Source: a virus
Direction: 5' to 3' (one strand)
DNA length: 64,000 nucleotides
Virus record (IMG/VR): IMGVR_UViG_3300027792_000010
In this document: in pieces, positions 41,169 to 64,000 of the stretch
Numbering within the stretch: the first letter of the stretch is position 1
Layout: the number at the start of each line of letters is the position of its first letter
The notes under the pieces: generated by a model
What the model saw: the letters and a program-made list of their open reading frames with translations, nothing else
Told to the model about the DNA's origin: nothing
The model's database searches: none
Program-made: the position numbers and the translations under genes

Positions 41169-41615
41169 ATGCCCCGGTACGATTATAGATGTAATGAGTG
41201 TGGGACCATCTTTGAGATTATCCACTCTATCAAAGAAACACCCATTCTTCAATGCCAAGAATGTGAATCTAAGGAATCTCTTGAGAGATTAATTTCTCAG
41301 AATTTTGGCGGCTTTATATTTAAGGGTCATAAGACTGAATCAATGAATTGGAAAGAAAAGAGAGTTCGTCATAAAAAGAACGCAGAATTAGAAGTGAAGC
41401 AGATAGAAAAGTGGAGCGGTACAAATGGTAAACTTGTACCTAATATAGGTGGGACTCCTTTTGATAACTGGAGAGATGCTGCAGTGGCGGCTAAAGAATC
41501 AAAGTTAGATCCGACAGGGTTCCAGAAGAAAGCAGAAGAATCTAAACACTTAAATGCTTTTGGGATAGATGATAGAAAGTGGAAAGAAGCTAAGAAGAAG
41601 AGAGATGAAGCTTAA
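41169..41615 (+). CDS. FmdB-family zinc-ribbon protein
   Basis: MPRYDYRCNECGTIFE...CQEC...LERLIS. Confidence 0.85.
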   Translation: MPRYDYRCNECGTIFEIIHSIKETPILQCQECESKESLERLISQNFGGFIFKGHKTESMNWKEKRVRHKKNAELEVKQIEKWSGTNGKLVPNIGGTPFDNWRDAAVAAKESKLDPTGFQKKAEESKHLNAFGIDDRKWKEAKKKRDEA

Positions 41616-41657
41616 TAAGCTCTCATAATAGATTAAAATTATATAGATGGAGATAAT

Positions 41658-43361
41658 ATGTCAAACCTGAAAAAAGGTCTTTCTTTATGTGTCATAGTGG
41701 GCCCTGGAGAAGCTAAAGATTTAGATAGGCTTCTAAGTTCGTGTACCCCAAAAGATAAGCCTCAATTTTTTGACGAAATTTGTATAACCCACGCTACTAA
41801 GGAAAATGATCAGGAAGTTATATCAGTTGCAAATAAATATACTAGTAACGTGTCTTTTTTCAAATGGCGAAACGATTTTAGCGCTGCCCGTAACTATAAC
41901 TTCGATAAAGCAACCTGTTCTCACATACTTTGGCTTGATGCAGATGACGTTATAAAACCTGATAATTATGATAAGCTATTAGCTATTAAAGATAGTATTT
42001 TCTCAAAAGACCTTATCCTTCTTACCTATGTATATCATCACGATGAAAATGATAATCCTGTAGTTGTTTTACCTAGGGAGAGGATAGTTAGGAACTGTGG
42101 GGAAATACGTTGGCATGATCCTATTCATGAATATCTTCCTATGTTCAATCATTTCAAGATGGAGCAGTATAGCGAGATAGCTATCGATCACTATCGCTCA
42201 AAGCCTTTTAACCCAGAGCGTAATCTTTCCATTCTTGCTGAGGAATATAAAAAGTCTAATTGTTCTGGTAGGACTAAATTCTACTATGGTAAAGAATTAT
42301 TCGATATACAGAGGTACATAGAAGCTCTTCCTGTTTTAGAAGATTACTTATCTAAGGATAATGACGATTTTGTAGATAATAAGTGTGTCGCCTGTATTAA
42401 ACTCTCTACTTATTACTATGTGCAGAAGAACATAGATGCTTGTAGAAACTACGCCATGAAGGGTATGCGTTTTAATCCTAATTATGCAGAAAACTATGTA
42501 ACTATGGGTGATACCTATTCTGATGATAATAAGATAGATACCGCAATTGAATATTACAAAGAAGCAAAAACAAAAAAATTAGTAGGGGGGATGTCTCAGC
42601 TTGTCGATTATTACGGATTCATTCCATCTTATAGATTAGCGGTTATGTTCGCAAAGAAAAAGGAGTTTAGAGAAGCTATTAGATACATGGAAGAGGCTAT
42701 GGCTTTAAAACCACAGCATGAACAGCTTATCAAACTTCATCGAGACCTAAAGAGTGAGTTTGATTCTACGAGTAAGGTAAAGTTACTAGATGAGTCCTCG
42801 TTGAAGAAGATTACAGATTTTCTTAAAGAAAATAATTTTATAATTAATGTAGAGGATAATAACTCAGACTTTGCACGATTAAAAATTACTAGGGTTAAGA
42901 ATATCAGTGTGGCTTGGATGATTCCTTACATTAATATAGATGATCCTGCCACACGCATAAGAAGGGTAAATATTCATGGACTTCTTGCAACAAAAAATAT
43001 CAAAACTCAAATTCTGGCTAACCTCATTACGAACTATAATACTAAAACTCCAATGGAGGTACGGAACTCTGTCGGAGATGCTAATATTGCTATTTTCTCT
43101 TCTTTTACTCCGACTGATGTGGAAATAATCAAGCACTTTAAGGGTGTCGGGATCAAAGTTATATTTGACCTTGCTGAGGCTATTTTTGATTTCCCTGGGG
43201 TATCTGAAATTCTTAAGATGGTTGATTTAGTGGTGTGCTGCTCCACAAAGCTTCAGGATATGTGCATAGAGCGAGGAATCACGAAGACGGCTATAATAAA
43301 GGACGCTGTAGAAGAAACTTCCTTTGATACTCCTCATCAGTATATACGTGATATGGAATAA
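41658..43361 (+). CDS. GT2 glycosyltransferase + TPR repeats + N-terminal half of a GT-B fold
   Basis: LSLCVIV, WRNDFSAARN, WLDADD (DxD), WHDPIHE, TPR helices. C-terminal ATRIRR...DLVVCCSTKL...IKDAVE. Confidence 0.85.
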   Translation: MSNLKKGLSLCVIVGPGEAKDLDRLLSSCTPKDKPQFFDEICITHATKENDQEVISVANKYTSNVSFFKWRNDFSAARNYNFDKATCSHILWLDADDVIKPDNYDKLLAIKDSIFSKDLILLTYVYHHDENDNPVVVLPRERIVRNCGEIRWHDPIHEYLPMFNHFKMEQYSEIAIDHYRSKPFNPERNLSILAEEYKKSNCSGRTKFYYGKELFDIQRYIEALPVLEDYLSKDNDDFVDNKCVACIKLSTYYYVQKNIDACRNYAMKGMRFNPNYAENYVTMGDTYSDDNKIDTAIEYYKEAKTKKLVGGMSQLVDYYGFIPSYRLAVMFAKKKEFREAIRYMEEAMALKPQHEQLIKLHRDLKSEFDSTSKVKLLDESSLKKITDFLKENNFIINVEDNNSDFARLKITRVKNISVAWMIPYINIDDPATRIRRVNIHGLLATKNIKTQILANLITNYNTKTPMEVRNSVGDANIAIFSSFTPTDVEIIKHFKGVGIKVIFDLAEAIFDFPGVSEILKMVDLVVCCSTKLQDMCIERGITKTAIIKDAVEETSFDTPHQYIRDME

Positions 43362-43429
43362 TTAATTGTATATTTCAATAGAGATGATTAGTTATATAAC
43401 ATATAGATAAAAAAGAGAGGCTATATAAT

Positions 43430-46400
43430 ATGAAAGAGTTAAAAGCAGGTTTTTTTGGATGCGGTGGAAATTCCTTTCTTGTGACCGACTATTTGAGAAA
43501 AACTATAGAAGATGCAGGATATAAATTAATTGTTTGTAGTGAGTGGGACAATGCGGATGTAAAGTGGGGGTTAAACACATGGAAAGCAGCGATGAATGAC
43601 TGTGATGTCGTATTATGCCCTCAGAGAGTTGAGGTACAAGCTGCCAAATCAAATGTGAAGGTTACAACGGCTATGGCCCTTGGTATGCCTGTTATTGCTA
43701 GTCGTATAAAGTCTTATGAAGAAGTTATAAGGCACGGAGAAAATGGGTACATCTGTGACAGTATGGATGATTGGTCTAAGGCACTTATAGAATTAAAGGA
43801 CCCTGAAAAAAGGAAACAGGTAGGAACTGCAGCAAAAAATTCTATAGGGCAGTACACTCAGGATTATATATCTACGCAGTGGATAACAACCTTTAATAAG
43901 ATTTTGTCTGAAGAGATAAAAGAAGTTAATTCTGAGCCTATGGTTTCTGAGCTGAAATCAAGAGACTTAATAGACATAATTATTCCTAACTATCAGAATC
44001 TTGATTATCTAAAAATGTGTCTTACTTCTATTAGGTTGAACACTACGCATCCTTATAACCTAATTATTTCTGATGCCGGAAGCGGCGAAGAGGTATGGGG
44101 CTATCTAAGAACATTACAGGGCATCACAGTTCTTGGAAGCCCTACCCAAAGAAAGACTTATTCTGAAGCTTGTAATTCAGGTATAGAGGCTTCTAATACT
44201 AAGTACCTTGTTATCCTTAACTCAGATGTTATAGTATCTTCAGGATGGCTTACAAACCTTGTGGATAAGATGGATAGCGTAGAGAGACTCGCTGCTTGTG
44301 GTGTTCTTTCGAACTGTGATCGTGGTTGGTTATTCAGAGCGCCTGAGGACACTGATCCGAGGTTGAGTCAGCTTCCTGTATACCCTATGACTCTTATGAA
44401 GTCTGGTGTAAATCTTCATCCGGGTATGAAGAAGGATGAGATAGAACCTCATATTGAGGAACTGTATAAATTTATGGAGGACTCAAATAAGGCTAACAAG
44501 GGTAAATTTGTTAGACAGTCTTGGGTAGCAGGTTATGCCACTATCTATGCTAGAACAGCTATCAATGAAGTAGGGTTATTTGACACTCAGTATAAGAACG
44601 GTTGTGAAGATTCAGATCTTTGTTTGAGACTTGCTAAGAGTTATTTCTCTATGGGTCAGGCTATTGATTCTTTTGTATTCCATTTTGGTGGTGTTACTAG
44701 AACTACCTATCAAGGTGAAAATAAAGAAGTATATGATAAAGAAGATATGGATAATCATATAAAGTACCGTACTAAGTGGGCTAAACAAAGAGTTTGGATA
44801 TACACAGGACCTGCTCACGAGCCTTGGGATAAAGCTAAGGTAGATGCAGGCATGGCAGGATCAGAAACTTGGGCAACATATTTGGGCGAGGCTTTTGCTC
44901 GTAAAGGGTATGACGTTAGAATCTACAACGATTTGAATATAGAAGATAAAGCACTGCCTAAGCTGGAGCCTGTATATGTAGATAACGAGTTAGTAGGGGC
45001 TGTAACGTACAGACACTATACAAATATGTATGAAGATTTGAAGTATGACCATATCGATTACTTTATTAGTTCGAGGACAGTACAGCCGTTTTTAAATAAT
45101 GTACATTCTTGTAAAAAATTTGTAATGGTGCATGATATTTGGTTATCTAATGATCCTAATTATGATTTGCAGGCATGGCAGGTATTCAAGTATGCTTATT
45201 TGAGTGAGTGGCATAAGAATTTTTTGATCCATCATCATAAAATGCCCTCTGAAAAAATGTTTTTGACTGGAAACGGTGTTGTGCAGGATCTCTATAAAGA
45301 TGTAGATTTATACACAAAGAAAAATAAGATTGTGTATAGCTCCAGTCCAGATAGAGGTTTATACCAGTTACTACAGATGTTCCCAGCAATTAAGAAAGAA
45401 GTCCCCGATTTGGAACTTGTGGTAGGGTATGGGTTTTTTAACTGGAAATCATTTGCGAGGCAGAGAGGTGATACTGCTTCTATTGCTTTGATGGAAAAGA
45501 TAGAAGGATTGATGAATCAACCAGGGGTAACTTATCTTGATAGGGTTGATAAGAAAACACTTGCTTACCATCAGATGGAAGCTAAAGTATGGGTAATGCC
45601 TACATGGTTTAGTGAAACTTTCTGCTGTCACCCTGATAATGAGATTGTGACTGATAAAGGTTTTAAACGAATAGTTGATCTAACTATGACTGATAAAGTT
45701 TTGACGCATAAAGGAAGATTTAGAAGAATTGAGAAAATTCTTTCACGTAAGGTAAATGAGGAGTTATTGGGTCTAATAATAAAAAACCATACAGCAGATA
45801 TTGGGTATTATACCCCAGAGCACCCAATACTTAGAATTACGTCAAAAGTTGCTAATAAAATTAAAAGAAATAAGGAGATGATAAAGGAACAGGGTATTAT
45901 ATCTGATTGGGTTTCAATCAAAGATATCCATGTTGGGGACTATGTTTGTTTACCTACTATTAAAGAAAGTACCCCAGTAAAATATTATGAACTTATATCT
46001 GATATGAAAGATATAAATAGAAACTACAGAGTATACGGTAATAATATCATGACTAGAAAAGATAGCAGGTATAAGACTATACCATCAAAAATATTAATGA
46101 ACGAAGAATTTGCTAGATTTTTGGGTCTATACTTCTCTGAGGGATCTTTTAGTGGTGGCTGTATAAAGTTTTCTTTTCATAAGAAAGAAGAAGCATATAT
46201 TTCTTTTGTGAGAGAGTACATTAAAAATACTTTTGGTTACGAAACTAAAGTATCAACTAAAAATAACTGTTCAATAGTTTCATGCTACTGTAATTCTTTG
46301 GGGGAGTGGCTAAAAAGAATATTTGGGAGAGAAGCCTCAAAGAAAGATGTACCTCATTTTGTGTTTATGCAAAGTTATGACTTCATCAAATCTTTTATTA

Positions 46401-47059
46401 AAGGGGTTTTTGAGGGCGATGGTAGTAAGAATGCTAATGAGTATAAAATAGATATGGCGACTAAGCGTGGTATAATGAGTTTAAAATTATTATGCTCTAA
46501 AATAGGATTACACCCTAGTTTTAGAAGAACTAAGCATGGGGATGATGGAAATCTTGATTATTACGCTCTTGGACTAAGTAGTAGTCTGTGGTCTAAAATT
46601 TTCGATGAAAAACAAAAAGATAAAACTTATGAAGTATTTTTAGAATATGACGGTCAGGTATATTATCGTATAAAAAATATTAATAGGAAACAATATGAAG
46701 GCTATGTGTATAATTTAGAGGTAGAGGAAGATAATTCATATGTATCCAATTTTGTAGCAGTACATAATTGCATCACAGCGGTCGAGAACGGATTAGCTAA
46801 GAACGCTCTATTAAGTACAGATTTTGCAGGATTGTCAACAACAGTAGGGGATTCAGGTATCCTATTACCCTATGATCCTCAGCTTACGAGGGATGAAGAT
46901 TACCCTAAGGATTACTCTGATAGATTTATATCTGAATCTATAAGACTATTTAAGGATGAAAGTTATAGAAAAGAATGGGCTAATAAAGCTTATAATAAGA
47001 TGAAAGAATATACCTGGGATAATATAGCTGAAGGTTGGATTAAGCAATTTAAAGCTTAA
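43430..47059 (+). CDS. multidomain glycosyltransferase (GT-B C-half + GT2 + GT4-like GT-B with intein)
   Basis: KSNVKVTTAMALGMPVIAS...GENGY; IDIIIPNY, LNSDV, GCEDSDL; YSSSPDRGL and, after splicing, ETFCITAVE (EX7E). Confidence 0.85.
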   Translation: MKELKAGFFGCGGNSFLVTDYLRKTIEDAGYKLIVCSEWDNADVKWGLNTWKAAMNDCDVVLCPQRVEVQAAKSNVKVTTAMALGMPVIASRIKSYEEVIRHGENGYICDSMDDWSKALIELKDPEKRKQVGTAAKNSIGQYTQDYISTQWITTFNKILSEEIKEVNSEPMVSELKSRDLIDIIIPNYQNLDYLKMCLTSIRLNTTHPYNLIISDAGSGEEVWGYLRTLQGITVLGSPTQRKTYSEACNSGIEASNTKYLVILNSDVIVSSGWLTNLVDKMDSVERLAACGVLSNCDRGWLFRAPEDTDPRLSQLPVYPMTLMKSGVNLHPGMKKDEIEPHIEELYKFMEDSNKANKGKFVRQSWVAGYATIYARTAINEVGLFDTQYKNGCEDSDLCLRLAKSYFSMGQAIDSFVFHFGGVTRTTYQGENKEVYDKEDMDNHIKYRTKWAKQRVWIYTGPAHEPWDKAKVDAGMAGSETWATYLGEAFARKGYDVRIYNDLNIEDKALPKLEPVYVDNELVGAVTYRHYTNMYEDLKYDHIDYFISSRTVQPFLNNVHSCKKFVMVHDIWLSNDPNYDLQAWQVFKYAYLSEWHKNFLIHHHKMPSEKMFLTGNGVVQDLYKDVDLYTKKNKIVYSSSPDRGLYQLLQMFPAIKKEVPDLELVVGYGFFNWKSFARQRGDTASIALMEKIEGLMNQPGVTYLDRVDKKTLAYHQMEAKVWVMPTWFSETFCCHPDNEIVTDKGFKRIVDLTMTDKVLTHKGRFRRIEKILSRKVNEELLGLIIKNHTADIGYYTPEHPILRITSKVANKIKRNKEMIKEQGIISDWVSIKDIHVGDYVCLPTIKESTPVKYYELISDMKDINRNYRVYGNNIMTRKDSRYKTIPSKILMNEEFARFLGLYFSEGSFSGGCIKFSFHKKEEAYISFVREYIKNTFGYETKVSTKNNCSIVSCYCNSLGEWLKRIFGREASKKDVPHFVFMQSYDFIKSFIKGVFEGDGSKNANEYKIDMATKRGIMSLKLLCSKIGLHPSFRRTKHGDDGNLDYYALGLSSSLWSKIFDEKQKDKTYEVFLEYDGQVYYRIKNINRKQYEGYVYNLEVEEDNSYVSNFVAVHNCITAVENGLAKNALLSTDFAGLSTTVGDSGILLPYDPQLTRDEDYPKDYSDRFISESIRLFKDESYRKEWANKAYNKMKEYTWDNIAEGWIKQFKA
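45623..46768 (+). mobile_element. intein with LAGLIDADG endonuclease (382 aa) in the glycosyltransferase EX7E motif
   Basis: Starts CCHPDNE, ends NFVAVHN, +1 residue Cys. Motifs FLGLYFSEG and IKGVFEGDG. Confidence 0.92.
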
Positions 47060-47085
47060 ATAGGTTATAGTATAAAAAACGGATG

Positions 47086-47120
47086 AAAGCCTCTTGGGTA
47101 ACCAAGGGGCTTTTTGTTTT
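47086..47120 (+). terminator. intrinsic terminator of the GT operon
   Basis: aaagcctcttgg-gtaa-ccaaggggcttt followed by ttgtttt. Confidence 0.85.
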
Positions 47121-47121
47121 G

Positions 47122-47135
47122 ATAATCTTTTAATA
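47122..47135 (+). promoter_or_regulatory. class B (probable late) promoter motif
   Basis: ataatcttttaata immediately after the terminator. Confidence 0.6.
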
Positions 47136-47176
47136 AAGGTACGGTAGGTAAATGAGTTTCTTTTTTGGAGGTATAT

Positions 47177-47626
47177 ATGAGTGCCCCTGCGATTCAAGTA
47201 GCTGTTAGTGATGAGTTAGTGAAAATATTTTGGGATATAGATACATCAAATACGTATAGAGGTTTTAATCTTTACTATTCTCTTACCGATGCTACTATGG
47301 CATCACCTACTGTGCAGGGGAAAGAGATACCTAATGTCCCGAGTACTACATATAGCAAGAGTCAGGTCATATACACGTTTAGGAGAAGTGATATAGGAGC
47401 AGGTATTAATCAGCCTTTTTATCTTAGATTAAGAGGTGTGAGTCAAGCCGGGGTAGAAGATACTGCAACACCGGGGCCTATAAAGTACCTTCCTAGTTAT
47501 TCTGAAAAAGCTCCTATGGTAAAACAGATGATGTATGCCTATGACCCTACAGATAATGTATACAGAAAAGTAAAAGTAGTGCAGGATACAGGTAATGAAT
47601 CCGGTAAACTTGATACTACAACTTAA
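47177..47626 (+). CDS. virion protein with FN3/Ig-like domain
   Basis: ATG 47177 after GGAGG. VKIFWD...YRGFNLYYS...FYLRLRGVSQAGVE pattern. Confidence 0.6.
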   Translation: MSAPAIQVAVSDELVKIFWDIDTSNTYRGFNLYYSLTDATMASPTVQGKEIPNVPSTTYSKSQVIYTFRRSDIGAGINQPFYLRLRGVSQAGVEDTATPGPIKYLPSYSEKAPMVKQMMYAYDPTDNVYRKVKVVQDTGNESGKLDTTT

Positions 47627-47635
47627 GAGATGGTA

Positions 47636-47651
47636 ATAATCTTTTAATATA
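47636..47651 (+). promoter_or_regulatory. class B (probable late) promoter motif
   Basis: ataatcttttaatata. Confidence 0.6.
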
Positions 47652-47728
47652 AGAGTATAAGTAATATGCTCTTATATAAGAGCTTGTAAATAGATTTAGC
47701 AAAGTTCACATTTTAAGGAGGAATTACA

Positions 47729-48160
47729 ATGGCTAATCGTCTAAAAATCGAGTATAAGGGAAGCAACATAGGTAAGATATATCTTAGCGATGTTGGTAAA
47801 AGATATGGTCTTGGTGGAGGGCAAGAGGGTGACTATGGTACATCAGGCCAAGATCTATATATGATTTGGGGCGAGACAATTGTTTTAGACCTGACTGGGG
47901 AAGTTTTAAGAAGTATGACTGCTGGTGTTCTTAAGTTTTTCACTACAGCTTCTAGCTCAACAGCTTTTACAACTAACGGTGCTCCATTAACTCTAACTGA
48001 AGGTTCTTATACCTCTGCTGATGAGTATCCAAGAAGAGACCTTGGTGCTACAGGTGGTACAAAATTCTCGGATGCGTATCTTGCCATTCTTGCTAATGAC
48101 AAATACGCTCCTACAGGTGCTGCTGGCGCGACTGGTGTATATGTTGGAAACTCGTTCTAA
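47729..48160 (+). CDS. probable abundant virion structural protein
   Basis: AAGGAGG RBS, Gly/Thr-rich, contains two G-A-T-G motifs, followed by a strong hairpin. Confidence 0.65.
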   Translation: MANRLKIEYKGSNIGKIYLSDVGKRYGLGGGQEGDYGTSGQDLYMIWGETIVLDLTGEVLRSMTAGVLKFFTTASSSTAFTTNGAPLTLTEGSYTSADEYPRRDLGATGGTKFSDAYLAILANDKYAPTGAAGATGVYVGNSF

Positions 48161-48175
48161 GTGACGGTCTTTTTA

Positions 48176-48204
48176 AGAGTAGCTCAGAAATTCTGGGCTA
48201 CTCT
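48176..48204 (+). other. 13-bp hairpin without a following U-tract
   Basis: agagtagctcaga-aat-tctgggctactct, preceded by T5 and followed by aatcat. Confidence 0.65.
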
Positions 48205-48236
48205 AATCATCATAGATTAGATAAAGGTATAACAAA

Positions 48237-48521
48237 ATGACTATAAATAGTATACATGGAGATCTGATCCACACAGAAGAGGGTGTAAAAACCTGTGACT
48301 TATATCTTGCAGCATTCTTTGTTTCTGCTGGATGCCCAATAAAAAAGACGTATAAAGACCCAAAGAGAGTCTATTTTTTGTTTGAAAACCCAGACATGAT
48401 CGAAAGGCTGAGAGAGGACTATTTTACAAGAAGATCGAATGTCATAGCTCTAACATATGCAGACAACATAAAGTCTCTCAAAAGCCTGTGTGCAAGTATT
48501 ACAGATAATCTAAAGAGGTAA
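48237..48521 (+). CDS. DUF5659-like protein
   Basis: DLYLAAFFVSAGCPI...KRVYFLFE matches the pattern of this small phage family as recalled; not searched. Confidence 0.55.
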   Translation: MTINSIHGDLIHTEEGVKTCDLYLAAFFVSAGCPIKKTYKDPKRVYFLFENPDMIERLREDYFTRRSNVIALTYADNIKSLKSLCASITDNLKR

Positions 48522-48524
48522 AAA

Positions 48525-48737
48525 GTGGCAGGATTATACGATACTTTTCAGGGGAGTATAGGCACTGTATCCCCAGTGTTTGGTCAATATAAGCAACTTA
48601 TGGGTATTGACCTTGATATCGGAATATCCGGTATAAATGGTCTTACTGGAGCTGGAACACTACAGCCATATAATGTATGGGTGGGTATAACAGGGATACA
48701 GGGAAGTAGTCAAGTACATTCAAAGTGGGAATATTAA
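48525..48737 (+). CDS. small Gly-rich probable virion protein
   Basis: GTG start after GAGG. Contains GLTG and GITG motifs. Confidence 0.6.
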   Translation: MAGLYDTFQGSIGTVSPVFGQYKQLMGIDLDIGISGINGLTGAGTLQPYNVWVGITGIQGSSQVHSKWEY

Positions 48738-48738
48738 T

Positions 48739-49224
48739 ATGTTAAGAGTCTCGGCTATTCAGGCTATGAAGCATATAGCAGCAAGTAACTTCAAATTAGG
48801 AACTGTTGTTTTTAACGATTTTGAGGGTATTAATGAGCTTCATAAGCAGAAGGCTGTAGAAGAAGACGGAGAGATAGATTTAGATACTATTAATCAGTTT
48901 GACTTTTGGGCTGATCTTAGTATCAAATACGAAGGCAACCCTCCTGAAAGCTATAGAGTTTTGAATTCCATCCTAATGGACTGGGTGGATGATAATGAGC
49001 AGAATCTAAAAAAAATCATAAATCCACGATTGAAAAAATTCCTACAAGAAAAATATAGCGATATTGATTCCAGTGAGTTAGACGAGAACTTTGATGACTT
49101 CATTTGGGAAGATCAAGTAGATTATATGCCAGAGATAAATGAAGAGGATAAGATAGTAGATTTCAAATTAGAACTAATACTTGAAATAGAAGAAGTAGAA
49201 GAAGATCTCGATGAGGATGCTTAA
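48739..49224 (+). CDS. acidic hypothetical protein
   Basis: 161 aa, Asp/Glu-rich, leader MLRVSAIQAMKHIAAS. Confidence 0.7.
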   Translation: MLRVSAIQAMKHIAASNFKLGTVVFNDFEGINELHKQKAVEEDGEIDLDTINQFDFWADLSIKYEGNPPESYRVLNSILMDWVDDNEQNLKKIINPRLKKFLQEKYSDIDSSELDENFDDFIWEDQVDYMPEINEEDKIVDFKLELILEIEEVEEDLDEDA

Positions 49225-49313
49225 AAATATAAGCACTCAAGTTAATAGGTATGATAATATGCCGTACCGCAGGATATAATATAGGTTTCAATTCCATTTT
49301 AAAAGCGGTATTT

Positions 49314-54304: not shown

Positions 54305-56248
54305 ATGGCTGCTAACAGAACAAAAACTATTGAATATACCCTTCCCTCAATATTGACGGATATAGCGGAGAGCGCAGTATTCACTAACTCAGCTGATACA
54401 ACTATATACATACCAGAGACTACAAGTAGATCTTTTGTTAGTGTTTCTATGGAGGTAGTATGTGGAGATAATGGAGCCGGGAACGTAGCTCTATCAGCTT
54501 GGGGACTACAAGGATCTTGTGATTCTGGATCTAATTGGACTACAGCCGTAATAGGGAGCGGGTATGCTGCTACGGCAGAAAATATATCTCATATATTTTT
54601 TGTAGATATGACCGATGAATTTACAAGCAGATTTGGAAGTGGCACATCTGGGACTTTTATGTATGGTATATATTTAGATTATGCCTCAGCAATAAATTTC
54701 ACTAATGTATCTGCTAAGCTTATAATAACGTACAACTATGATGATAGCGCTCATAATACAAGAATAAAAACAGTACGGATACCTATTGAGAGTTTTAACG
54801 GCAGGCTCTCAAATACCGCCCAGATTATCAGGCAGGGGACGATAACAAACCAGATACCAGCACTTGATACTTTCTTACCAGAAACAAGTAAAGTATATAG
54901 ACAGATTACAGCTGAACTTTGGTCCAATACCTTACCGTCCGCAGCAACCGCTACTACTTTATATGTAAAACTTGATAGTGGGGGGGCAGAAACAACATAT
55001 GGTACTTTAGGAACGACACTAGTAACTCCTGTGACTTTAAGATTCTTCTTTAATCTTAATAGTATGGATACATCTCTTTCCCATGATCTTTATGCTAGAC
55101 ACGCTGTAGCATCACAGAGCTACTTTACAAATATAGGTGGGTGGGTTATTGTTACATATGAGTACGACCACTCTAATTCTAATACTATAATGAATAGCTT
55201 ATTTATGGGTTTTGGGGAAACAACCTGTAATACACGGTTAGTAGGAGACAAAGATATAGTTAGTATACAAAGATTTATAGAAGAGCCTGGTACTATTACT
55301 CTCCAACAGAGTGCTATTTGGGTGACTGCCGCCGCAGGGACAACAAATAGAACTTTTAATTTTGGTGTCGGGAGCCAAACCGTTACAGGATATACTGTTA
55401 CAACAGGTGGGGGGATGGCAGGTATGCTATCCATTTTTCATAGGGTTGATTCTGGGTCATATAGAGGAGCTGGAATAACTTTAGATCGCGGATTAAATAT
55501 ATTTACGGCACAATGGTATGCCTCAGCTATTGACACGTTTTCAAACGTGTCCTGTCTAATGATCCTTAATTACACTAGTGGGAAACACGCTTCCGGTGAT
55601 GGTGTACATTCTCATAGCGTACATTGGAATATATTCTCAAACAATAGAGCGACAACAGCATATATACCACCATTATCCGCTAGTAGGCAACCAACAATCA
55701 TAGAACCAAATTACTATTTGTTAGGAGTTATGCCTGTAGTATATCAGAATGGAACAACAGGGGCAATTCAATATTTAGTTTTTCAATGTGAAAATCTATC
55801 TACAGAGTCTAATGCAGGGGGTTGGACTGACCTGTTTTCCTCAGTAGGGATTACTAGTAATGAAAGAATGTTTCAAATATCAAATGGTGTATGTAGATTT
55901 GCTTTTAAACGATGGCCTCTAGATACTGATAGTACAAGGTTAGACATAGAAGGTGCTAGGTCATGGAGAATAACAGGTCTCTCTGCTCAATACGGTGTAG
56001 GATTATGGATTACATATCATTCCGTGACGTATACCATAGCAGGATCAATAAAGAATTATACTGGAGACGGATCTGGTATTACTGTAAATATACACAGAAC
56101 AGATACAGATGAGTTAATAGGATCAACTACTACTTCAGTAGGAGGCTCCTATACTATAACCTGGTATGATAATGAAACTAATGTTTATGCTAATGCTATT
56201 CAAAACTCTACACACATAGGAAGATCTATAGACGGATTAGCAGTTTAA
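54305..56248 (+). CDS. virion protein, beta-rich, probable fibre tip/receptor-binding component
   Basis: 647 aa Thr/Ser/Gly-rich with an internal two-fold similarity and a C-terminal Ig/carboxypeptidase-regulatory-like domain (IAGSIKNYTG..ITVNIHRTDT). Confidence 0.55.
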   Translation: MAANRTKTIEYTLPSILTDIAESAVFTNSADTTIYIPETTSRSFVSVSMEVVCGDNGAGNVALSAWGLQGSCDSGSNWTTAVIGSGYAATAENISHIFFVDMTDEFTSRFGSGTSGTFMYGIYLDYASAINFTNVSAKLIITYNYDDSAHNTRIKTVRIPIESFNGRLSNTAQIIRQGTITNQIPALDTFLPETSKVYRQITAELWSNTLPSAATATTLYVKLDSGGAETTYGTLGTTLVTPVTLRFFFNLNSMDTSLSHDLYARHAVASQSYFTNIGGWVIVTYEYDHSNSNTIMNSLFMGFGETTCNTRLVGDKDIVSIQRFIEEPGTITLQQSAIWVTAAAGTTNRTFNFGVGSQTVTGYTVTTGGGMAGMLSIFHRVDSGSYRGAGITLDRGLNIFTAQWYASAIDTFSNVSCLMILNYTSGKHASGDGVHSHSVHWNIFSNNRATTAYIPPLSASRQPTIIEPNYYLLGVMPVVYQNGTTGAIQYLVFQCENLSTESNAGGWTDLFSSVGITSNERMFQISNGVCRFAFKRWPLDTDSTRLDIEGARSWRITGLSAQYGVGLWITYHSVTYTIAGSIKNYTGDGSGITVNIHRTDTDELIGSTTTSVGGSYTITWYDNETNVYANAIQNSTHIGRSIDGLAV

Positions 56249-56257
56249 GAGGTATCT

Positions 56258-56461
56258 ATGTCTTTTGATATTATACTAAGAGAAAATACTGGACAAAATT
56301 TTGATATAAATTTTGGTACCAATGCTTATACCGTAGTAGAGGGTATTCCAAAGCAAGTAGCAGACACATACGTTTTAGTAGATGGTACTTGGAGATTGGT
56401 TACCGAGGCTTATATTAGTGTTAACGGGACATGGGAACAAAGCACAGGTATGGATATATAG
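56258..56461 (+). CDS. small virion fibre-associated protein
   Basis: Duplicated YVLVDGTWR / YISVNGTWE beta-hairpin motif. Confidence 0.65.
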   Translation: MSFDIILRENTGQNFDINFGTNAYTVVEGIPKQVADTYVLVDGTWRLVTEAYISVNGTWEQSTGMDI

Positions 56462-56589
56462 TACATCAGTATCTTAGTTTATCTACTTAATTGTAGAAAT
56501 AGTTTCCACCAATTAAATCTTATTAGCTTCTAATAATGAATTAATAAAAAAGTACAAATAGACATACTCTATTTAAAAGGGATACACAA

Positions 56590-58431
56590 GTGGCTGACTT
56601 AAAAGAATATGTTAAAGGATATACTCTAAATGAAGATGATTTAACTATTACTTTTATTAGTAATAATTATTTAGGATATCCTACATATTATTCTCCTTAT
56701 TATTTAAGATACGAAATAAACTACTTTGATCCTGTCGATCAAATATATCATACTGTAGGATATGCTAATAGGCAGCCTTATGAGATAAAGGTTGGTATAT
56801 TTTGTGCCCTATTTGTTGTTGAAACGGTATGGGAAGCCGGATACTATCAGATTAGGTGGAAGTACAAAATATCAGATGCTAGCCCTGAACAGTATAGTAC
56901 AACAGAATTTCAAGTACTTGGCAATCTATATAGCCCAGTTGATGATACTATAGCAGGTTTACAAGTTGATGTATATAGTAATATAGGTGTAACTGGAGTA
57001 CCCGGTCCTACAGGACCCGTCGGAAGCGGTTCCATAGCCACGGGGACGGGCGGGATCACAGGGCCTCAGGGAGCCACTGGGATTTCAGGAGGTGGAACAG
57101 GGTTACCCGGTCCTACGGGACTTCAGGGGGCTACAGGAATTTCAGGAGGAGGTACAGGGCTACCAGGTCCTACAGGCTGGCAAGGTGTTACAGGTCCTAC
57201 CGGAATAGGATATACAGGATTACCCGGCACTACCGGAATAGGATATACAGGATTACCCGGCCCTACAGGTTGGCAAGGTATTACAGGTCCTCAAGGATTA
57301 GGATATACAGGGTTACCTGGCTCTACTGGAATAGGGTATACAGGAGTAGATGGGGTGACAGGACCTGTAGGATGGACTGGGGTACAAGGTGATACAGGAT
57401 TACAGGGGTATACAGGATTAATCGGAGCGACTGGACCTCAAGGACAGATAGGACATATAGGAGCAACAGGCTTAATAGGTCCTACAGGACCCCAAGGTTT
57501 ACAAGGGTCTCAGGGTAATCAAGGTATAACCGGAGCACAGGGTCAAACAGGTTTGCAAGGGCCTCAGGGTGATCAAGGTCAAACAGGAGTACAAGGTCAA
57601 ACAGGAAGTTTAGGTACTCAAGGACTTCAAGGGGCAACGGGCCTGATAGGTCAAACAGGTATTCAAGGGCCTGTTGGAAGTATAGGTGTTACAGGTGTAG
57701 GGGTAACAGGACATCAAGGCATTAAGGGTGATACGGGGATAGCTGGTCAAACTGGTATTCAAGGTAGTACTGGATTAGGATCTATAGGTATACAAGGTGT
57801 TACCGGAATCGGCGTAACAGGGACACAAGGTATACAAGGTAGTACTGGATTAGGACATACAGGTCTAAGAGGTGATACAGGTCTAAGAGGCGATACGGGT
57901 CTAAAAGGTGATACAGGTCCGCAGGGTATAACTGGTCCTTGTATCATAAGTCAGCGTACTACATTTCCTACGGGGAGTATATCAGTCCCAGATATAATGT
58001 GGAATTTTAAGAATGAGGCTTTTTACGGATTTGTTACAGGGGTTAATAGATGGGTTCAAATAAGTGCTGGGGCACAAGCTGGTGTAACAGGACCGCAAGG
58101 AGCTACGGGAGTAAACTTTTCAACACTGTATAATGCAGGGACTGTAACAAGTTCCCCGTTACAAATTAATTGGTCTAATGGTTTAAAACAATATGCGACC
58201 GTTGGTACATCAGGAATAGTATATATGACTAATGGAGCTACAGGAGTAAACTATACATTTGAATTGAGGTATTCTGTCAATTTATCACCAGGATGGACAG
58301 GTATAATGTGGCCTTTTGGAGGTACTATACCATTTTTTGGATCATATACAGGAGCTAAAGATATACTGTCATTCTTTTTTGATGGAGAGCACTACTTAGG
58401 TACCTCTACTCCAGATTTTAGGTACCCATAA
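56590..58431 (+). CDS. collagen-like fibre protein with N-terminal adaptor domain
   Basis: GTG start, about 320 aa of Gly-X-Y, C-terminal globular domain ending in [15 protein letters not shown]. Confidence 0.85.
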
Positions 58432-58439
58432 GGAAAAAT

Positions 58440-59150
58440 ATGTTACCTAGTTATTCTAATTTGATAGCGCATTGGAAAATGAATGATAATAATGACAATA
58501 CTATAGTATTAGATAGTACTAATAGAAATCATAATGGTGTTTGGCAGCATGGTAATACGTCATCAGACAGTGTATCAGGTAAGATAAACAGAGCTTTAAA
58601 TTTTAATGGTACTAGTGATAATATTGTAATAGATAGTCATGCAGATTTTAATAATTCAACTTTTTCATTCTGTGCTTGGCTAAAGCATACAAGTGCAGCA
58701 GGGAATTGGGATAGGGTATTATCTAAAAAAAGTACGTACTCTGCAACTAATGGGTATGAGATAACTTTAAACAATACTGCGGATAGTACTTTATGGGTAT
58801 CTGGGTCTAGTGGCTCTTTTGCAACGTCAGCATTACAGTTTAATTGGACTGACCAACTATGGCATCATATAGTTGTTGTATATATAGGGAGTACACTTAG
58901 AATATATGCAGACGGTGTAAATAAAACTTATTCAGGATCTATAGCCTCTGTAGTATCTAATACTCAGCCATTAAAGTTAGGGCCTAATGTAGATGATGCT
59001 AATACATATTGGAGAGGTGCCATGGATGATATTAGGTATTATAATATAGCACTATCACAGTCACAAGTTACAAGTATCTATAATAACGGTCTTGGTACGG
59101 AGATCCCGACAGATTTAGTAAGTTCAATAGTTTTAAGTTCCAATTATTAA
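58440..59150 (+). CDS. LamG / concanavalin-A-like lectin domain protein
   Basis: LIAHWKMND, GKINRALNFNG, FSFCAWLK, WHHIVVVY, IYADG, GAMDDIRYYNIAL. Confidence 0.9.
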   Translation: MLPSYSNLIAHWKMNDNNDNTIVLDSTNRNHNGVWQHGNTSSDSVSGKINRALNFNGTSDNIVIDSHADFNNSTFSFCAWLKHTSAAGNWDRVLSKKSTYSATNGYEITLNNTADSTLWVSGSSGSFATSALQFNWTDQLWHHIVVVYIGSTLRIYADGVNKTYSGSIASVVSNTQPLKLGPNVDDANTYWRGAMDDIRYYNIALSQSQVTSIYNNGLGTEIPTDLVSSIVLSSNY

Positions 59151-59164
59151 AAGAGAGAATTAGT

Positions 59165-62100
59165 ATGGCTTTTCCTGTAAATCCTATAAATAATGAAATC
59201 TATATAAACCCTCTTGGTACACAATATAGGTATGTTGCAATAGATAATGCATGGACTATCGATAGCACCGCTGTTACAGGTAATGCTGGATTAACAGGTG
59301 TAGGTATAACAGGTACACAAGGAGCCACAGGTGTAGGTATAGCAGGATTACAAGGTCAGACAGGTCCTCTTGGTACCCAAGGTGTAACAGGAGTTGGCAT
59401 AACAGGACCACAGGGTAGTACAGGTTTACAGGGTATTCAAGGTACTCAGGGATTAACCGGAGCACCGGGATCAACAGGTCCTTATGGTCTCGCTGGATCG
59501 ACAGGTACCCCAGGAGCACAGGGACTAACTGGCTTACAAGGCACACAAGGACTAACAGGATTCTTCGGACTTACTGGTTATCAAGGTATAACTGGAGCAT
59601 CCTCTATAGGATCTACTGGGCCTACAGGAGAAACAGGTTTACAGGGTATACAAGGTATTACCGGAATCCTTGGTATAGATGGTCAGACTGGAGCACAAGG
59701 AATAACAGGTTTACAAGGTCAGACTGGTATACAGGGTACTCAAGGGGCTTTAGGTCAAACTGGAATTCAGGGAATTCAAGGTACACAGGGAAGCACAGGT
59801 ACCCAAGGAATCAAAGGTGATACAGGTACCCAAGGAATCCAGGGTATACAAGGTAATACAGGTATTCAAGGATTACAAGGAATTAAAGGTGATACAGGTA
59901 TCGGAGTTACTGGTATCCAAGGTACCCAAGGAATCAAGGGTGATACAGGTATCGGAGTTACTGGTATCCAGGGAACTCAAGGACAGACGGGAGTAGGAGC
60001 TACAGGGTCACAGGGAATTCCTGGTCAAACTGGAATACAAGGGCCTCAGGGTATCACAGGTATAGGGATAACCGGGCCTCAAGGTATTACAGGGTTAGCT
60101 GGGCCTACAGGATGGCAGGGATTAACAGGACCTGCTGGTTCTACAGGACCCTACGGGCTTGGGGGATCTACAGGATCTCCTGGGGAACAAGGGATAACTG
60201 GCGCTCAAGGCGCACAAGGACTAACAGGATTCTTCGGACTTACTGGTTATCAAGGTATAACTGGAGCATCCTCTATAGGATCTACTGGGCCTACAGGAGA
60301 AACAGGTTTACAGGGTATTCAAGGTATACAAGGTATTACCGGAATCCTTGGTATAGATGGTCAGACTGGAGCGCTGGGTAGTACAGGTGCCCAAGGGCCA
60401 CGAGGGTTAACAGGTTTACAAGGTATCCAGGGCTCACAAGGAAATACTGGTATTCAGGGTACCCGAGGCGAAACAGGTCTGCAGGGAACGCAAGGTATCC
60501 AAGGTGAAACAGGTTTACAAGGAACGCAAGGTATCATAGGAGCTACGGGTATCATAGGAATTCAAGGTACCCAGGGTGAAACAGGTCTGCAGGGAATACA
60601 AGGTACCCAAGGAACTACTGGCTTACAAGGAATTAAAGGTGATACTGGAGTTCAGGGCATACAGGGTATTAATGGTGATACAGGTTTACAAGGATATACT
60701 GGTATAGGGGTGACAGGGTTACAAGGTCATACCGGAACAGTAGGTACTCAAGGGGTTACAGGGTTAATAGGTATAACAGGTGCTCAAGGTCCCTCATTAA
60801 TTTATGCAGGTATAGCATTTGATGGGGCAAATACCCCATTAATAGATATATATCCAGATGCATCTATAGGTATTACCGGAACCTATGTAAATCTATATGA
60901 TAATCCTTACTTTGATGGTTTATTATCAAGGTACTATATTCCAGGGGTTACAGGTTTAACATTTACAGATGGATCAGCACAGTACATAGCTATTGATTAT
61001 AACGGTGGATCACCTATATATCGCGTCGCCGCACCCTATGAACTTAATAGTAGCACAGTAGTTCCTATTTACAATATATGGAGAGTTGGTACTGAGATTC
61101 ATTCGGCAGGCCCATATCAAGCCGGATTTGGATTAGGCGAGAAAATTGCAAATAGAATCGGCGCTACAATGCCGTATACCAGATCTTTAGCTGGTGGCCT
61201 TATTATAAGTGAAACATCTACCCCAGTAGAAAGAACTGTTCTTATTACTTCTGCTACTGTATATGCAAATATACTACCTATAAGTGTTTTAGCTTATAAC
61301 TCAAGCACCGATGTATTAACTAAAGCTACAATAACAACTGGTGTTTGGACATATACTTCAGAGACACAATATAACAATACGGACTATAACCCAACTTCTG
61401 GCCCTGCCGCCATGAATAATAACTACTATTCAGTGAGGTGGTTTTATAGAAGCATAGGAGATGTAAAAGAAGTCTTTTATGTGATGGGTACTTCAGAATA
61501 TAGTAATTCTAGAGATGCAGAGGCAGAGCAGCCTAGAAGTGACCTCCCTAACGTTATTAAGTCACATTGTATGCTAGTAGGTAAATTAATCATTAAAAAG
61601 GGAGCATCTTCAGGAGTAGTATATAGTGCTTTTAATATAGTATTTGATAGTTCAGGAGTAGTAGAGCATAATAACTTAGCTAGTCTTCAGGGTGGTACAG
61701 TAGGAGAGTATTACCATCTTTCCGCAGCAGGGTATAATTGGGTTTTAGGCGGGATGAGTGGTATACATTTGGGAGCCACAGGCGCTCAAGGTTTAACTGG
61801 CGTGCAAGGTATACAGGGATTAACAGGTATCGGTGCCACAGGTATCCAAGGTACTCAAGGTACTCAAGGTCAGACAGGCGTTGGTGCCACAGGTATCCAA
61901 GGAATCCAAGGATCTCAGGGAGAAACAGGGATTAACGGAGACACTGGAATACAAGGGTTAACAGGGGGTATAGGTAGCACAGGAATTTCTTACAAGTCAT
62001 TTATAGATAAGTTTATCTTACATACTGCAAGTTCTAGTCCGCCCGGTAGTGCGATTTCAGTTGATAATGCTAATCCATCAATAGCAACAAAACTATATAC

Positions 62101-64000
62101 AAATAAATCAGATAGTGATACGCTTGAGTTCTACAATTCTGTAGGCTTAGGTAGTTATTTAAAGATCCAAGATGTATTGGGCTTCGGATATTTTAATATC
62201 TATAAAGTAACAGGTAAATCTATAACGTCAAATACGTATTATTTCAATGTTATTCACAGTACAAAGATCGCAGGGTACGAAACAGTTCTTACACGTTATA
62301 TAAATGTAAGTGGTGAAGTATATTTAACAATAGTAGGTGAGCCTGGAGATATAGGTAGTACTGGACTTGCAGGTGCTACCGGGCTACAGGGATTACAGGG
62401 CACTCAGGGACAAACAGGCTTAGGAGTAACAGGGCCTACTGTGGCGGGTGTTACCGGATTAGCTGGTGCCACTGGATTAGCTGGCGCTACTGGATCTATA
62501 GGTGTCCAAGGAGCAGGTGGAGCATATACAACCTATTACTTCAATGAAGACCTTTACGGGTATACAGGAACATTAGCTCCTTACTATGCTTATAAGACTT
62601 TAAGTAAGACTCCTTCTATTAGTAATAACTTCGATAGTACTGCATACTATGTAAATAATGCGACATCTATGGGAGGGTTTACGGGAGTACATTTGGGATC
62701 GTATGTTATACCTCCATCTGAGTTGAATACTTCTCAAATTGATATAGGATTAGCTACATTCCGTAATTGGGGTATAAGAGCAGTGTCCTTTGCTGGTTTT
62801 AGATATGATATTTTAAAACATGCCGCAGACCATAGCGAGACTATGCTAGTGTATAGCCAAGATGGTGAAACACTGACTACTACCTCAGAAGCTGCTGTAT
62901 CTAACTCAGTTATTATACCTACTACTCCACTCGATACTACAGATGCTATAGTAGTCCGTTTGTGGGGTGCAGGGCAGGGAGCAGCCACAGCTACTGTAAG
63001 AGCTTATAATCAGTACCCAAGGCGACAGAGTTATCTTACCATGCCTATAAGTTATGGCAACCAAGGCCCTACAGGTTGGCAGGGATTAACGGGGGCTATA
63101 GGTAATGCTGGGGCGCAGGGAGATACTGGATTACAGGGAACTCAAGGTATACAAGGAAATACAGGTATTCAAGGTATCAAGGGAGAAACTGGTCTACAGG
63201 GTATCCAAGGCTCCCAAGGTATCCAAGGAAATACAGGTATTCAAGGCATACAAGGATCTCAAGGTACTACGGGTACCCAAGGTACAGCAGGATCGCAAGG
63301 TACCACTGGACTACAGGGTATACAAGGCTCTCAAGGTACTACTGGATTACAAGGATCAGCAGGTTCCCAAGGACAAACTGGTGCGGGTGGGGTAACGGGA
63401 TTACAAGGTATCCAGGGCTCCCAAGGTCAAACTGGTGCTCAGGGTACTACTGGTTTAGTAGGGTTGACCGGAAGTGGTACTCCTTTTAAGGCTGTTATTT
63501 TAAAAAATATGTATCCTGTAGCAGGCGTTACAGGGCTTGCAGGTTATATAGTATTGAATAATGACAATCCTTCATTAGCGACACAAATAGCGCTAAGCAC
63601 TTCGGATAGTAATACATATGCTTTCTTCAATTCTTTAGATACTAATACCTATTTAAAGATAGGGGATACATTGGATCAGAATTTTTTTAATATCTATAGG
63701 GTATTAAATGAGCCTGATAGTACTCCTATTACTTATAAGATACCTGTTATACACATTACAAAAATAGCAGGGTATCAGACTGATATTTTCCCATATACAA
63801 TAGGTGGTGCCGTAACTTTAAGTATAGTAGGAGACCCAGGAGACCAAGGATCTCAAGGTATAACAGGGCTACGAGGACAGACAGGCTTACAAGGTACCGC
63901 TGGTACCGCCGGAACCGATTCGGGGGCTACAGGCGTTGTATCTTTCACCTACAGCAATTCAGGTACCGCATTCACACCTACAGGTATGTTGGGTGAGTTC
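59165..64000 (+). CDS. very large collagen-like fibre protein with interspersed globular domains (3' truncated by window edge; absent from ORF track)
   Basis: ATG 59165 after GAGAG (MAFPVNPINNEIY...). The frame was open in every segment I translated (60782-61800, 61982-62370, 63481-64000) and no stop was seen before 64000. Includes HNNLASLQGGTVGEYYHL. Confidence 0.85.
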   Translation, partial: MAFPVNPINNEIYINPLGTQYRYVAIDNAWTIDSTAVTGNAGLTGVGITGTQGATGVGIAGLQGQTGPLGTQGVTGVGITGPQGSTGLQGIQGTQGLTGAPGSTGPYGLAGSTGTPGAQGLTGLQGTQGLTGFFGLTGYQGITGASSIGSTGPTGETGLQGIQGITGILGIDGQTGAQGITGLQGQTGIQGTQGALGQTGIQGIQGTQGSTGTQGIKGDTGTQGIQGIQGNTGIQGLQGIKGDTGIGVTGIQGTQGIKGDTGIGVTGIQGTQGQTGVGATGSQGIPGQTGIQGPQGITGIGITGPQGITGLAGPTGWQGLTGPAGSTGPYGLGGSTGSPGEQGITGAQGAQGLTGFFGLTGYQGITGASSIGSTGPTGETGLQGIQGIQGITGILGIDGQTGALGSTGAQGPRGLTGLQGIQGSQGNTGIQGTRGETGLQGTQGIQGETGLQGTQGIIGATGIIGIQGTQGETGLQGIQGTQGTTGLQGIKGDTGVQGIQGINGDTGLQGYTGIGVTGLQGHTGTVGTQGVTGLIGITGAQGPSLIYAGIAFDGANTPLIDIYPDASIGITGTYVNLYDNPYFDGLLSRYYIPGVTGLTFTDGSAQYIAIDYNGGSPIYRVAAPYELNSSTVVPIYNIWRVGTEIHSAGPYQAGFGLGEKIANRIGATMPYTRSLAGGLIISETSTPVERTVLITSATVYANILPISVLAYNSSTDVLTKATITTGVWTYTSETQYNNTDYNPTSGPAAMNNNYYSVRWFYRSIGDVKEVFYVMGTSEYSNSRDAEAEQPRSDLPNVIKSHCMLVGKLIIKKGASSGVVYSAFNIVFDSSGVVEHNNLASLQGGTVGEYYHLSAAGYNWVLGGMSGIHLGATGAQGLTGVQGIQGLTGIGATGIQGTQGTQGQTGVGATGIQGIQGSQGETGINGDTGIQGLTGGIGSTGISYKSFIDKFILHTASSSPPGSAISVDNANPSIATKLYTNKSDSDTLEFYNSVGLGSYLKIQDVLGFGYFNIYKVTGKSITSNTYYFNVIHSTKIAGYETVLTRYINVSGEVYLTIVGEPGDIGSTGLAGATGLQGLQGTQGQTGLGVTGPTVAGVTGLAGATGLAGATGSIGVQGAGGAYTTYYFNEDLYGYTGTLAPYYAYKTLSKTPSISNNFDSTAYYVNNATSMGGFTGVHLGSYVIPPSELNTSQIDIGLATFRNWGIRAVSFAGFRYDILKHAADHSETMLVYSQDGETLTTTSEAAVSNSVIIPTTPLDTTDAIVVRLWGAGQGAATATVRAYNQYPRRQSYLTMPISYGNQGPTGWQGLTGAIGNAGAQGDTGLQGTQGIQGNTGIQGIKGETGLQGIQGSQGIQGNTGIQGIQGSQGTTGTQGTAGSQGTTGLQGIQGSQGTTGLQGSAGSQGQTGAGGVTGLQGIQGSQGQTGAQGTTGLVGLTGSGTPFKAVILKNMYPVAGVTGLAGYIVLNNDNPSLATQIALSTSDSNTYAFFNSLDTNTYLKIGDTLDQNFFNIYRVLNEPDSTPITYKIPVIHITKIAGYQTDIFPYTIGGAVTLSIVGDPGDQGSQGITGLRGQTGLQGTAGTAGTDSGATGVVSFTYSNSGTAFTPTGMLGEF
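59544..60318. repeat. 106-bp perfect direct repeat (59544-59649 and 60213-60318)
   Basis: cacaaggactaacaggattcttcggac...gaaacaggtttacagggtat is identical in both copies. Confidence 0.9.

Follow-up and report, generated by a model that had tools for sequence, protein, structure and literature searches.

The 64,000-nucleotide stretch of viral DNA analysed here (IMG/VR record IMGVR_UViG_3300027792_000010, hereafter the window) carries a cassette of four glycosyltransferase (GT) modules, encoded by two genes at positions 41658-47059. We think it probable that the four modules work in the cytoplasm as a soluble O-glycosylation line and that their target is the collagen-like fibres of the phage itself. 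Support for this prediction comes from domain architecture, homology, intact motifs, gene linkage and conservation. Fibres are proposed as the target because the first module is homologous to SgtA of Clostridioides difficile, because such modules are linked to collagen-like genes in bacteria as well as in phages, and because the folds are those of peptide and protein glycosyltransferases. The window represents the morphogenesis region of a large phage, with all large open reading frames (ORFs) on the + strand and genes for replication proteins followed by those for terminase, portal, protease and the major head protein; the cassette sits between these head genes and the fibre genes. A contig of 202,460 nt is the recorded source of the window's GT protein. 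Relatives of this uncultured jumbo phage in IMG/VR reach 467-470 kb, and a megablast search of positions 41169-49300 against GenBank phages gave no match at the DNA level. Full-text literature searches brought up no report of phage fibres of the collagen-like kind being glycosylated, nor of phages encoding SgtA-like enzymes.

The most telling relationship is that of the module which opens the 567-residue protein, a family 2 glycosyltransferase (GT2) of the GT-A type followed by a stack of tetratricopeptide repeats (TPRs). It aligns with SgtA over the full length of the 358-residue enzyme, with 33% identity over 355 aa (BLASTP, E 7e-50). SgtA itself combines a GT-A domain with four TPRs, is encoded just upstream of bclA3 and transfers, in vitro, beta-O-linked N-acetylglucosamine (GlcNAc) onto Thr of the G-P-T repeats in the BclA3 collagen (PMC7157674); glycosylation of BclA and BclA3 is covered in PMC7157674 and PMC8968730. 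We identified the sgtA ORF via the published forward primer, in genomes of the bacterial family to which the Romboutsia locus L196 belongs. The ORF located in this way has 358 codons for amino acids and its C-terminal peptide equals the one encoded by the published reverse primer; the reverse primer DNA found no match at one mismatch or less in the fetched genome. Just downstream lies a 687-aa collagen ORF with a Thr fraction of 0.76 at the Y positions of its G-X-Y triplets. The residues D94, D96, D97, R140, R142, W152, H157, E158, H178, R188 and N189 do not vary in either of two alignments, one of phage (A1) and one of bacterial sequences (A2), and the DxDD motif with its partner residues, which bind metal and nucleotide sugar, is intact in the 567-aa protein. 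In a FastTree phylogeny of 150 GT2-TPR modules the bacterial clade holding SgtA (81 rows, support 100) and the phage clade of the window (16 rows) are separate, and the phage module is best described as a relative of SgtA, not as a demonstrated ortholog.

The closest relatives of the module with solved structures likewise act on peptides or proteins. A module profile searched against PDB sequences gave GmaR (E 3.7e-29) and SunS (8e-21) as the best non-repeat matches, the single sequence reaching about 1e-9 for both, while a Foldseek search with the AlphaFold model returned SunS and ThuS first (7msn, 7msp, 7msk; E 1.8e-16 to 5e-12), then SPY and OGT, with teichoic-acid enzymes ranking lower among the fold matches. 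GmaR of Listeria monocytogenes, which the initial annotation had put forward as the analogue, does have a homologous N-terminal GT2 followed by TPRs, and O-GlcNAcylates flagellin (PMC9638930). SgtA is nevertheless much the closer enzyme: the similarity to GmaR spans only about 190 residues at an E value of 1e-9 compared with 7e-50, and the antirepressor domain at GmaR's C-terminus is missing from the phage protein, where a Rossmann-like GT-B half is found instead. The glycocin S-/O-glycosyltransferases SunS and ThuS also pair their GT-A domain with a substrate-binding domain that is helical and TPR-like, but their substrates are small ribosomal peptides, glycosylated at Cys or Ser, and they are only 15-20% identical to the phage module; no glycocin-like precursor gene was seen beside the cassette, although no dedicated search was made.

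These relationships also bear on two quite different targets. Glycosylation of the phage DNA bases as a protection against restriction, an alternative already named in the initial annotation, would agree with a common role of phage glycosyltransferases (reviewed in PMC12619734 and PMC7029224), but we regard it as highly improbable for an enzyme with a protein-binding TPR stack whose nearest relatives, by sequence as well as by fold, have peptides or proteins as substrates; moreover, the scanned ORFs of the cassette and its neighbours include no base-hydroxymethylation-like gene, whole genomes not having been searched for such genes. Host molecules (surface polysaccharide, flagellin or pilin), modified to block superinfection or to change the cell surface, are in our estimate a poor candidate as well. 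One of the nearest relatives of solved structure, GmaR, transfers O-GlcNAc to flagellin, the fibre-region glycosyltransferases of pelagimyophages have been read as lipopolysaccharide modifiers (PMC7029224), and the bacterial SgtA-like loci that have no collagen neighbour, about half of them, may serve other proteins. On the other hand, neither GT protein shows a hydrophobic segment of transmembrane strength or any lipid-carrier feature, the cassette occupies a fixed place in the morphogenesis region and not a variable island, and both the similarity to SgtA, far above that to GmaR, and the recurring linkage to collagen genes speak for the phage's own fibres.

Among bacteria this linkage is tight. 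When GTDB was scanned with a single genome for each species, 80 SgtA-like loci with 28-36% identity were obtained, which together with the sgtA locus itself make 81. A collagen-like ORF lies within 1 kb of the SgtA-like gene, usually abutting it, in 39 of these 81 loci, and within 10 kb in 42 of the 80 scanned loci; as a comparison, the collagen model matches just 2-4 of 14 control genomes. Most of the collagen ORFs adjoining the bacterial SgtA-like genes have Thr at 0.5-0.99 of their Y positions. The arrangement of sgtA and bclA3 recurs in Clostridia, Bacilli and others (L175-L254, L261), and in Clostridium oceanicum (L208) four collagen genes surround one glycosyltransferase. The survey thereby widens what was a single example to many Clostridia and Bacilli.

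Relatives of the phage cassette were retrieved by scanning IMG/VR with an alignment-based profile, a single-protein query having returned none. The position of the cassette between conserved genes is constant in L001-L011 and L013. Collagen genes are found 4-9 kb downstream of it in the window, L001 and L002, and immediately before it in L012, L014 and L015. The GT module of L017-L019 is only 29% identical; in these records a collagen ORF, between 1461 and at least 2814 aa long, runs divergently from the cassette 174 bp away, and in L063 three Thr-rich collagen ORFs stand just upstream of a distant GT2-TPR gene. The complete 470-kb genome G020 has, in addition to its cassette, a second, 875-aa methyltransferase-GT2-TPR-GT9 gene placed 600 bp before a 3078-aa collagen gene (L167, 243000-258000), which is followed by two LamG genes, the same collagen-then-LamG order as in the window. 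In the sister-clade phage G023 (L157, 146485-150111) a sulfotransferase gene lies beside a GT2-TPR gene. Each of the 12 contigs that measure 90 kb or more and bear the cassette has collagen genes, three of these contigs being complete or near-complete genomes, and the five cassette contigs without a collagen match are fragments of 46-86 kb. Co-occurrence of the two in large phages, which had been suggested as a check, is seen in these 12 contigs, but it is uninformative as a test because relatives of this jumbo-phage group that have no cassette carry collagen too.

How the remaining modules could contribute follows from the architecture of the two genes. The 567-aa protein matches GT2 (PF00535) and TPR families in Pfam, and in its AlphaFold model (predicted local distance difference test score, pLDDT, 87) the GT-A domain is followed by stacked TPRs, from about residue 204 to 372, and by a domain with a Rossmann-like fold that spans about 394-546. 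The 1209-aa protein, whose ORF begins 68 nt after the first with its own ribosome binding site and ATG, matches a GT1-type C-terminal half at residues 43-137 and a second GT2 at 183-307, followed by a GT4-like region broken by an intein. Among 19 aligned relatives, the two cassette ORFs are fused in frame in some (P0003, P0007-P0009, P0013, P0014 and others; fused ORFs in IMG/VR measure 1373-1796 aa) and split at the same point as in the window in P0006, P0010-P0012, P0015 and P0018; L010 and L017-L019 also share this split point. Since the two GT-B halves belong to one chain in relatives, we take them to be partners. The four modules of the initial annotation, one of them split, are thus borne out by Pfam, by the AlphaFold model and by the fused and split relatives. 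In GT-B enzymes of the Alg13/Alg14 type the N- and C-terminal Rossmann halves are likewise encoded on separate genes, but both phage halves are joined to further GT modules, and close relatives of the phage show now the split and now the fused form. We propose that the 567-aa protein is the initiating protein O-glycosyltransferase and that the modules of the 1209-aa protein are glycan extenders. The enzymes that extend the first GlcNAc on BclA3 were never found in published work (PMC7157674), and the cassette would supply, as soluble proteins, an initiator already linked to three modules that are candidate extenders.

In the scheme that we favour, the SgtA-like module would hold a still-unfolded collagen chain with its TPR stack and add a first sugar, probably an N-acetylhexosamine by analogy with SgtA, to Thr (perhaps Ser) at the Y position of the G-X-Y triplets. 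The split GT-B, reassembled from the C-terminus of the 567-aa protein and the N-terminus of the 1209-aa protein, and then the second GT2 and the GT4 module would each add one sugar to give a short oligosaccharide, the GT4 module becoming active only once its intein has been spliced out. The glycosylated chains would then trimerise and be mounted on the virion as glycan-coated fibres; as the initial annotation also proposed, the glycan may stabilise and shield them.

The proposed substrates are the three long collagen-like proteins of 790, 613 and at least 1611 aa, the last of which runs off the window. For these three in turn, the fraction of Y positions occupied by Thr is 0.38, 0.39 and 0.33, by Gln 0.34, 0.27 and 0.41, and by Pro 0.04, 0.04 and 0.02; X positions are mainly Ile, Leu or Val, Lys is rare at Y, and about 200 Thr residues stand at Y when the three genes are summed. 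The longest uninterrupted G-X-Y run comprises 201 residues (497-697 of the 790-aa protein), the triple helix itself being predicted. The PF01391 matches, a run of six triplets in the 838-aa protein and these counts agree with the initial description of three long collagen-like genes and a short collagen linker with Y positions rich in Thr and Gln and poor in Pro, and the accompanying LamG lectin gene is also found. The beta-helix tips proposed for the fibres were not confirmed: no beta-helix was detected in the 838-aa and 647-aa proteins by Pfam, even at an E value of 5, or by PDB sequence search, and a single-sequence AlphaFold model of residues 160-838 of the 838-aa protein was unusable (pLDDT 32). 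The N-terminal parts of the 838-aa protein and the 613-aa collagen each match short proteins (134-300 aa) of relatives, and may be fibre-attachment domains.

A number of observations weigh against collagen fibres as the substrate. A Thr fraction of 0.33-0.39 at Y is ordinary for prokaryotic collagens, since bacterial collagen-like proteins have Thr at 31.6% of their Y positions overall and at 48.3% in Gram-positives (PMC8968730). The glycosyltransferase genes had been described as an operon directly before the collagen genes; they are indeed upstream on the same strand, but they are predicted to form a transcription unit of their own, from promoter to terminator, which is distinct from the collagen genes and separated from the first of them by 4.9 kb, five genes and a terminator hairpin. 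The promoter-like motif in front of the unit, TTTAAA-N17-TACATT, occurs three times in the window as compared with 0.15 copies expected from shuffles, and the two further copies precede other units at 3995 and 34340; this sharing is neutral as to timing and would also suit a host target. In the tree the phage clade is not nested within the SgtA clade and support for the deep nodes is only 80-88, and about half of the bacterial SgtA-like loci are without a nearby collagen gene. Among the phages, the 10 kb around the cassette hold no collagen gene in nine close relatives, the matches to collagen listed for G003, G005, G007 and G009 being tens to hundreds of kb distant, and nearly all members of this jumbo-phage group have collagen genes, whether they carry a cassette or not. 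In two clades of distant GT2-TPR genes from small phages (~35-45 kb; L020-L072), 12 of 13 complete genomes have no collagen. Relatives of the sister clade carry other glycosyltransferases, which lie beside Thr-poor collagens too: in G026 (L158, 90587-94222) a GT2 directly follows a pure G-x-Q collagen which is Thr-free and rich in Trp and Asn at X, and in G022 (L260, 76000-84500) a 1008-aa protein with four GT2 modules stands beside a collagen with a Thr fraction of 0.07. Finally, fibre glycosylation, donor sugars and acceptor residues are all predicted from comparison only.

The idea that the GT2-TPR module primes collagen glycosylation and the other modules extend the glycan thus gains comparative support from SgtA and from linkage, but is weakened by the separate transcription units, by the collagen-free small phages and by the pairing with a Thr-free G-x-Q collagen. 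GT2-TPR genes in genomes that have no collagen, which would count against it, are seen in the distant small-phage clades and not in the cassette contigs of at least 90 kb. The Thr content at Y itself is suggestive: it ranges from 0.27 to 0.56 in 12 cassette-bearing records (19 distinct ORFs), while in the sister clade three records have 0.00-0.07, one has 0.25 and one 0.61, three of the five being Gln-rich. This contrast by presence of the cassette amounts to about one phylogenetic contrast, with fragments and one exception, and we do not rely on it.

Several of these points would fit another explanation, namely that the cassette glycosylates other virion proteins: the capsid, the tail, the 647-aa Ser/Thr-rich protein between the collagen genes, or the globular ends of the fibres. 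The module can serve other substrates, since small phages have it without collagen, and in one annotated example (L023, 10001-12175) the GT2-TPR gene lies among the virion structural genes. The GT unit of the window stands between head and fibre genes without being co-transcribed with the collagens, and the GT2 of G026 adjoins a collagen that offers no Thr. To our knowledge, virion glycosylation by phage enzymes has been shown experimentally only in mycobacteriophages, on the tails of capsid and tail-tube proteins. There, according to the account given in PMC12619734, phage glycosyltransferases decorate the C-termini of capsid and tail-tube proteins, which are not collagens (Freeman et al. 2023, Cell Host Microbe). 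Such targets can be considered unlikely, but not negligible; among characterised enzymes the nearest one, SgtA, has collagen repeats as its substrate (PMC7157674), the cassette repeatedly adjoins giant collagen genes, and both kinds of target could hold together.

Compared with what that account reports for mycobacteriophages, the likeness lies in phage glycosyltransferases encoded in or near the structural module and in O-glycans placed on the phage's own virion proteins. The window glycosyltransferases lie in the virion morphogenesis region as in systems of this type, although the glycans are here predicted from genes alone. The mycobacteriophage substrates, as described in the same source, differ in being C-terminal tails and not collagen repeats, and their modification was shown by experiment. 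A second comparison can be made with Mimivirus L230, which hydroxylates Lys and glucosylates the hydroxylysine by means of a GLT25D1-like glycosyltransferase (PMC9614988). In both cases a virus encodes collagen-like proteins together with a glycosylating enzyme, a predicted one in the window, and giant-virus fibrils bear virus-made glycans (PMC9614988); Mimivirus is a eukaryotic virus, in contrast, and we saw no lysyl hydroxylase in the window, where few Y positions are taken by Lys. The moraphage lineage has four core GT orthogroups (PMC12619734).

The closest parallel remains that between the cassette and the SgtA-BclA3 pair, which share the layout of GT2 and TPRs, full-length homology and the invariant GT-A residues. 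Linkage to Thr-rich collagen-like genes recurs in the bacterial loci and in some phage relatives. The phage system differs in that its module is joined to three further GT modules, that its collagens have Ile, Leu or Val at X and Thr or Gln at Y in place of G-P-T, and that the setting would be a virion fibre and not a spore, with collagen genes lying 4.9 kb off and past a terminator.

A search for genes of nucleotide-sugar synthesis, which had been recommended as a check, was made in the relatives and revealed such genes in two of them. In G020 a sugar-nucleotide cluster downstream of the cassette (L258, 284000-303999) encodes a UDP-glucose (uridine diphosphate glucose) dehydrogenase, two epimerase/dehydratases, a nucleotidyltransferase, a formyltransferase and a PIG-L deacetylase, a combination which hints at unusual amino sugars, and in G005 an epimerase gene lies beside the collagen genes. 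It is conceivable, and we put it forward tentatively, that jumbo phages build a defined oligosaccharide on hundreds of fibre Thr residues, in some cases fed by phage-made formylated or de-acetylated amino sugars, and that this glycan, in place of protein, forms the outermost layer for contact with the host or for shielding, a phage counterpart of the exosporium nap of Bacillus and Clostridioides and of giant-virus fibrils. If fibre glycosylation holds true, many uncultured jumbo phages glycosylate long collagen-like fibres and their host recognition, stability and antigenicity would have to be rethought. One enzyme type would then connect spore exosporium naps, giant-virus fibrils and phage fibres. 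The cassette might also become a tool for producing glycosylated recombinant collagens.

Features of the glycosyltransferase unit and of the collagen-like fibre block in the window (positions in nt; roles of the regulatory elements are inferred and substrates are proposed)
Feature	Position	Strand	Basis or remark
Promoter-like motif TTTAAA-N17-TACATT	41114..41142	+	27 nt 5′ of the first gene of the GT unit; promoter role inferred
Zinc-ribbon (FmdB-like) protein, 148 aa, first gene of the GT unit	41169..41615	+	PF09723, E 3.2e-13
567-aa protein: GT2 (GT-A), TPR stack, N-terminal Rossmann half of split GT-B	41658..43361	+	Pfam, AlphaFold, SgtA homology
1209-aa protein: C-terminal half of split GT-B (~1-160), second GT2 (~178-470), GT4-like GT-B (~475-1209) with intein	43430..47059	+	PF00534, PF13692, PF00535, PF14890
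Intein, 382 aa, LAGLIDADG nuclease	45623..46768	+	Residues 732-1113 of the 1209-aa protein
Intrinsic-terminator-like hairpin, 13-bp stem and T-run, closing the GT unit	47085..47114	+	Terminator role inferred
Four small genes (153, 143, 94 and 161 aa) between cassette and fibre genes	47165..49224	+	94-aa protein: DUF5659, PF18903
838-aa fibre-like protein with six-triplet collagen linker (residues 142-159)	49402..51918	+	phrog_4577 tail protein, E 4.4e-7
790-aa collagen-like fibre protein, proposed substrate; 600 residues in G-X-Y runs, 76 Thr at Y	51918..54290	+	PF01391, E 6.8e-75
647-aa Ser/Thr-rich protein between collagen genes; S+T fraction 0.23	54305..56248	+	
613-aa collagen-like fibre protein, proposed substrate; 291 residues in G-X-Y runs, 38 Thr at Y	56590..58431	+	PF01391, E 1.4e-28
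236-aa LamG/concanavalin-A-like lectin-fold protein	58440..59150	+	PF13385, E 1.9e-23
Collagen-like fibre protein of at least 1611 aa, runs off the window, proposed substrate; 777 residues in G-X-Y runs, 86 Thr at Y	59165..64000	+	PF01391, E 6.1e-94

The intein in the GT4 module displays the hallmarks Cys1, a C-terminal His-Asn and Cys+1, and matches PF14890 (E 5.5e-11), PF14528 and TIGR01443. It is inserted at the E-x7-E motif of the module, where its excision would join SETF to CITAVE. L005, L006 and L013 are intein-free and continuous across this exact junction, while L003 and L010 carry an intein there, so that the element has the features of a class 1 intein with a LAGLIDADG homing nuclease, including intein-free alleles at the same site. 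A glycosyltransferase is an unusual host protein for an intein. The terminase (1085 aa, 13127-16384) and the portal protein (1136 aa, 21128-24538) of the window are oversized and have endonuclease-like or intein-like PHROG matches in mid-protein, on account of which there are probably three inteins in the window in all.

The genes on either side of the cassette accompany it in the relatives. A homolog of the zinc-ribbon protein adjoins the cassette in L001-L011, L013 and L015, and homologs of the four small genes occur in the same order in these same records. No family match was found for the 153-, 143- and 161-aa proteins, and the 647-aa protein had no match in Pfam, PHROG or PDB. A 46-kb contig (L073, IMGVR_UViG_3300013128_000004) with a capsid gene 99% identical to that of the window stops before the GT unit, and is probably the same phage from another sample. 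In the conserved block 5′ of the GT unit, positions 37368-37943 encode a 191-aa 2H phosphoesterase with a match to the anti-CBASS Acb1 family (PF23474, E 2e-9).

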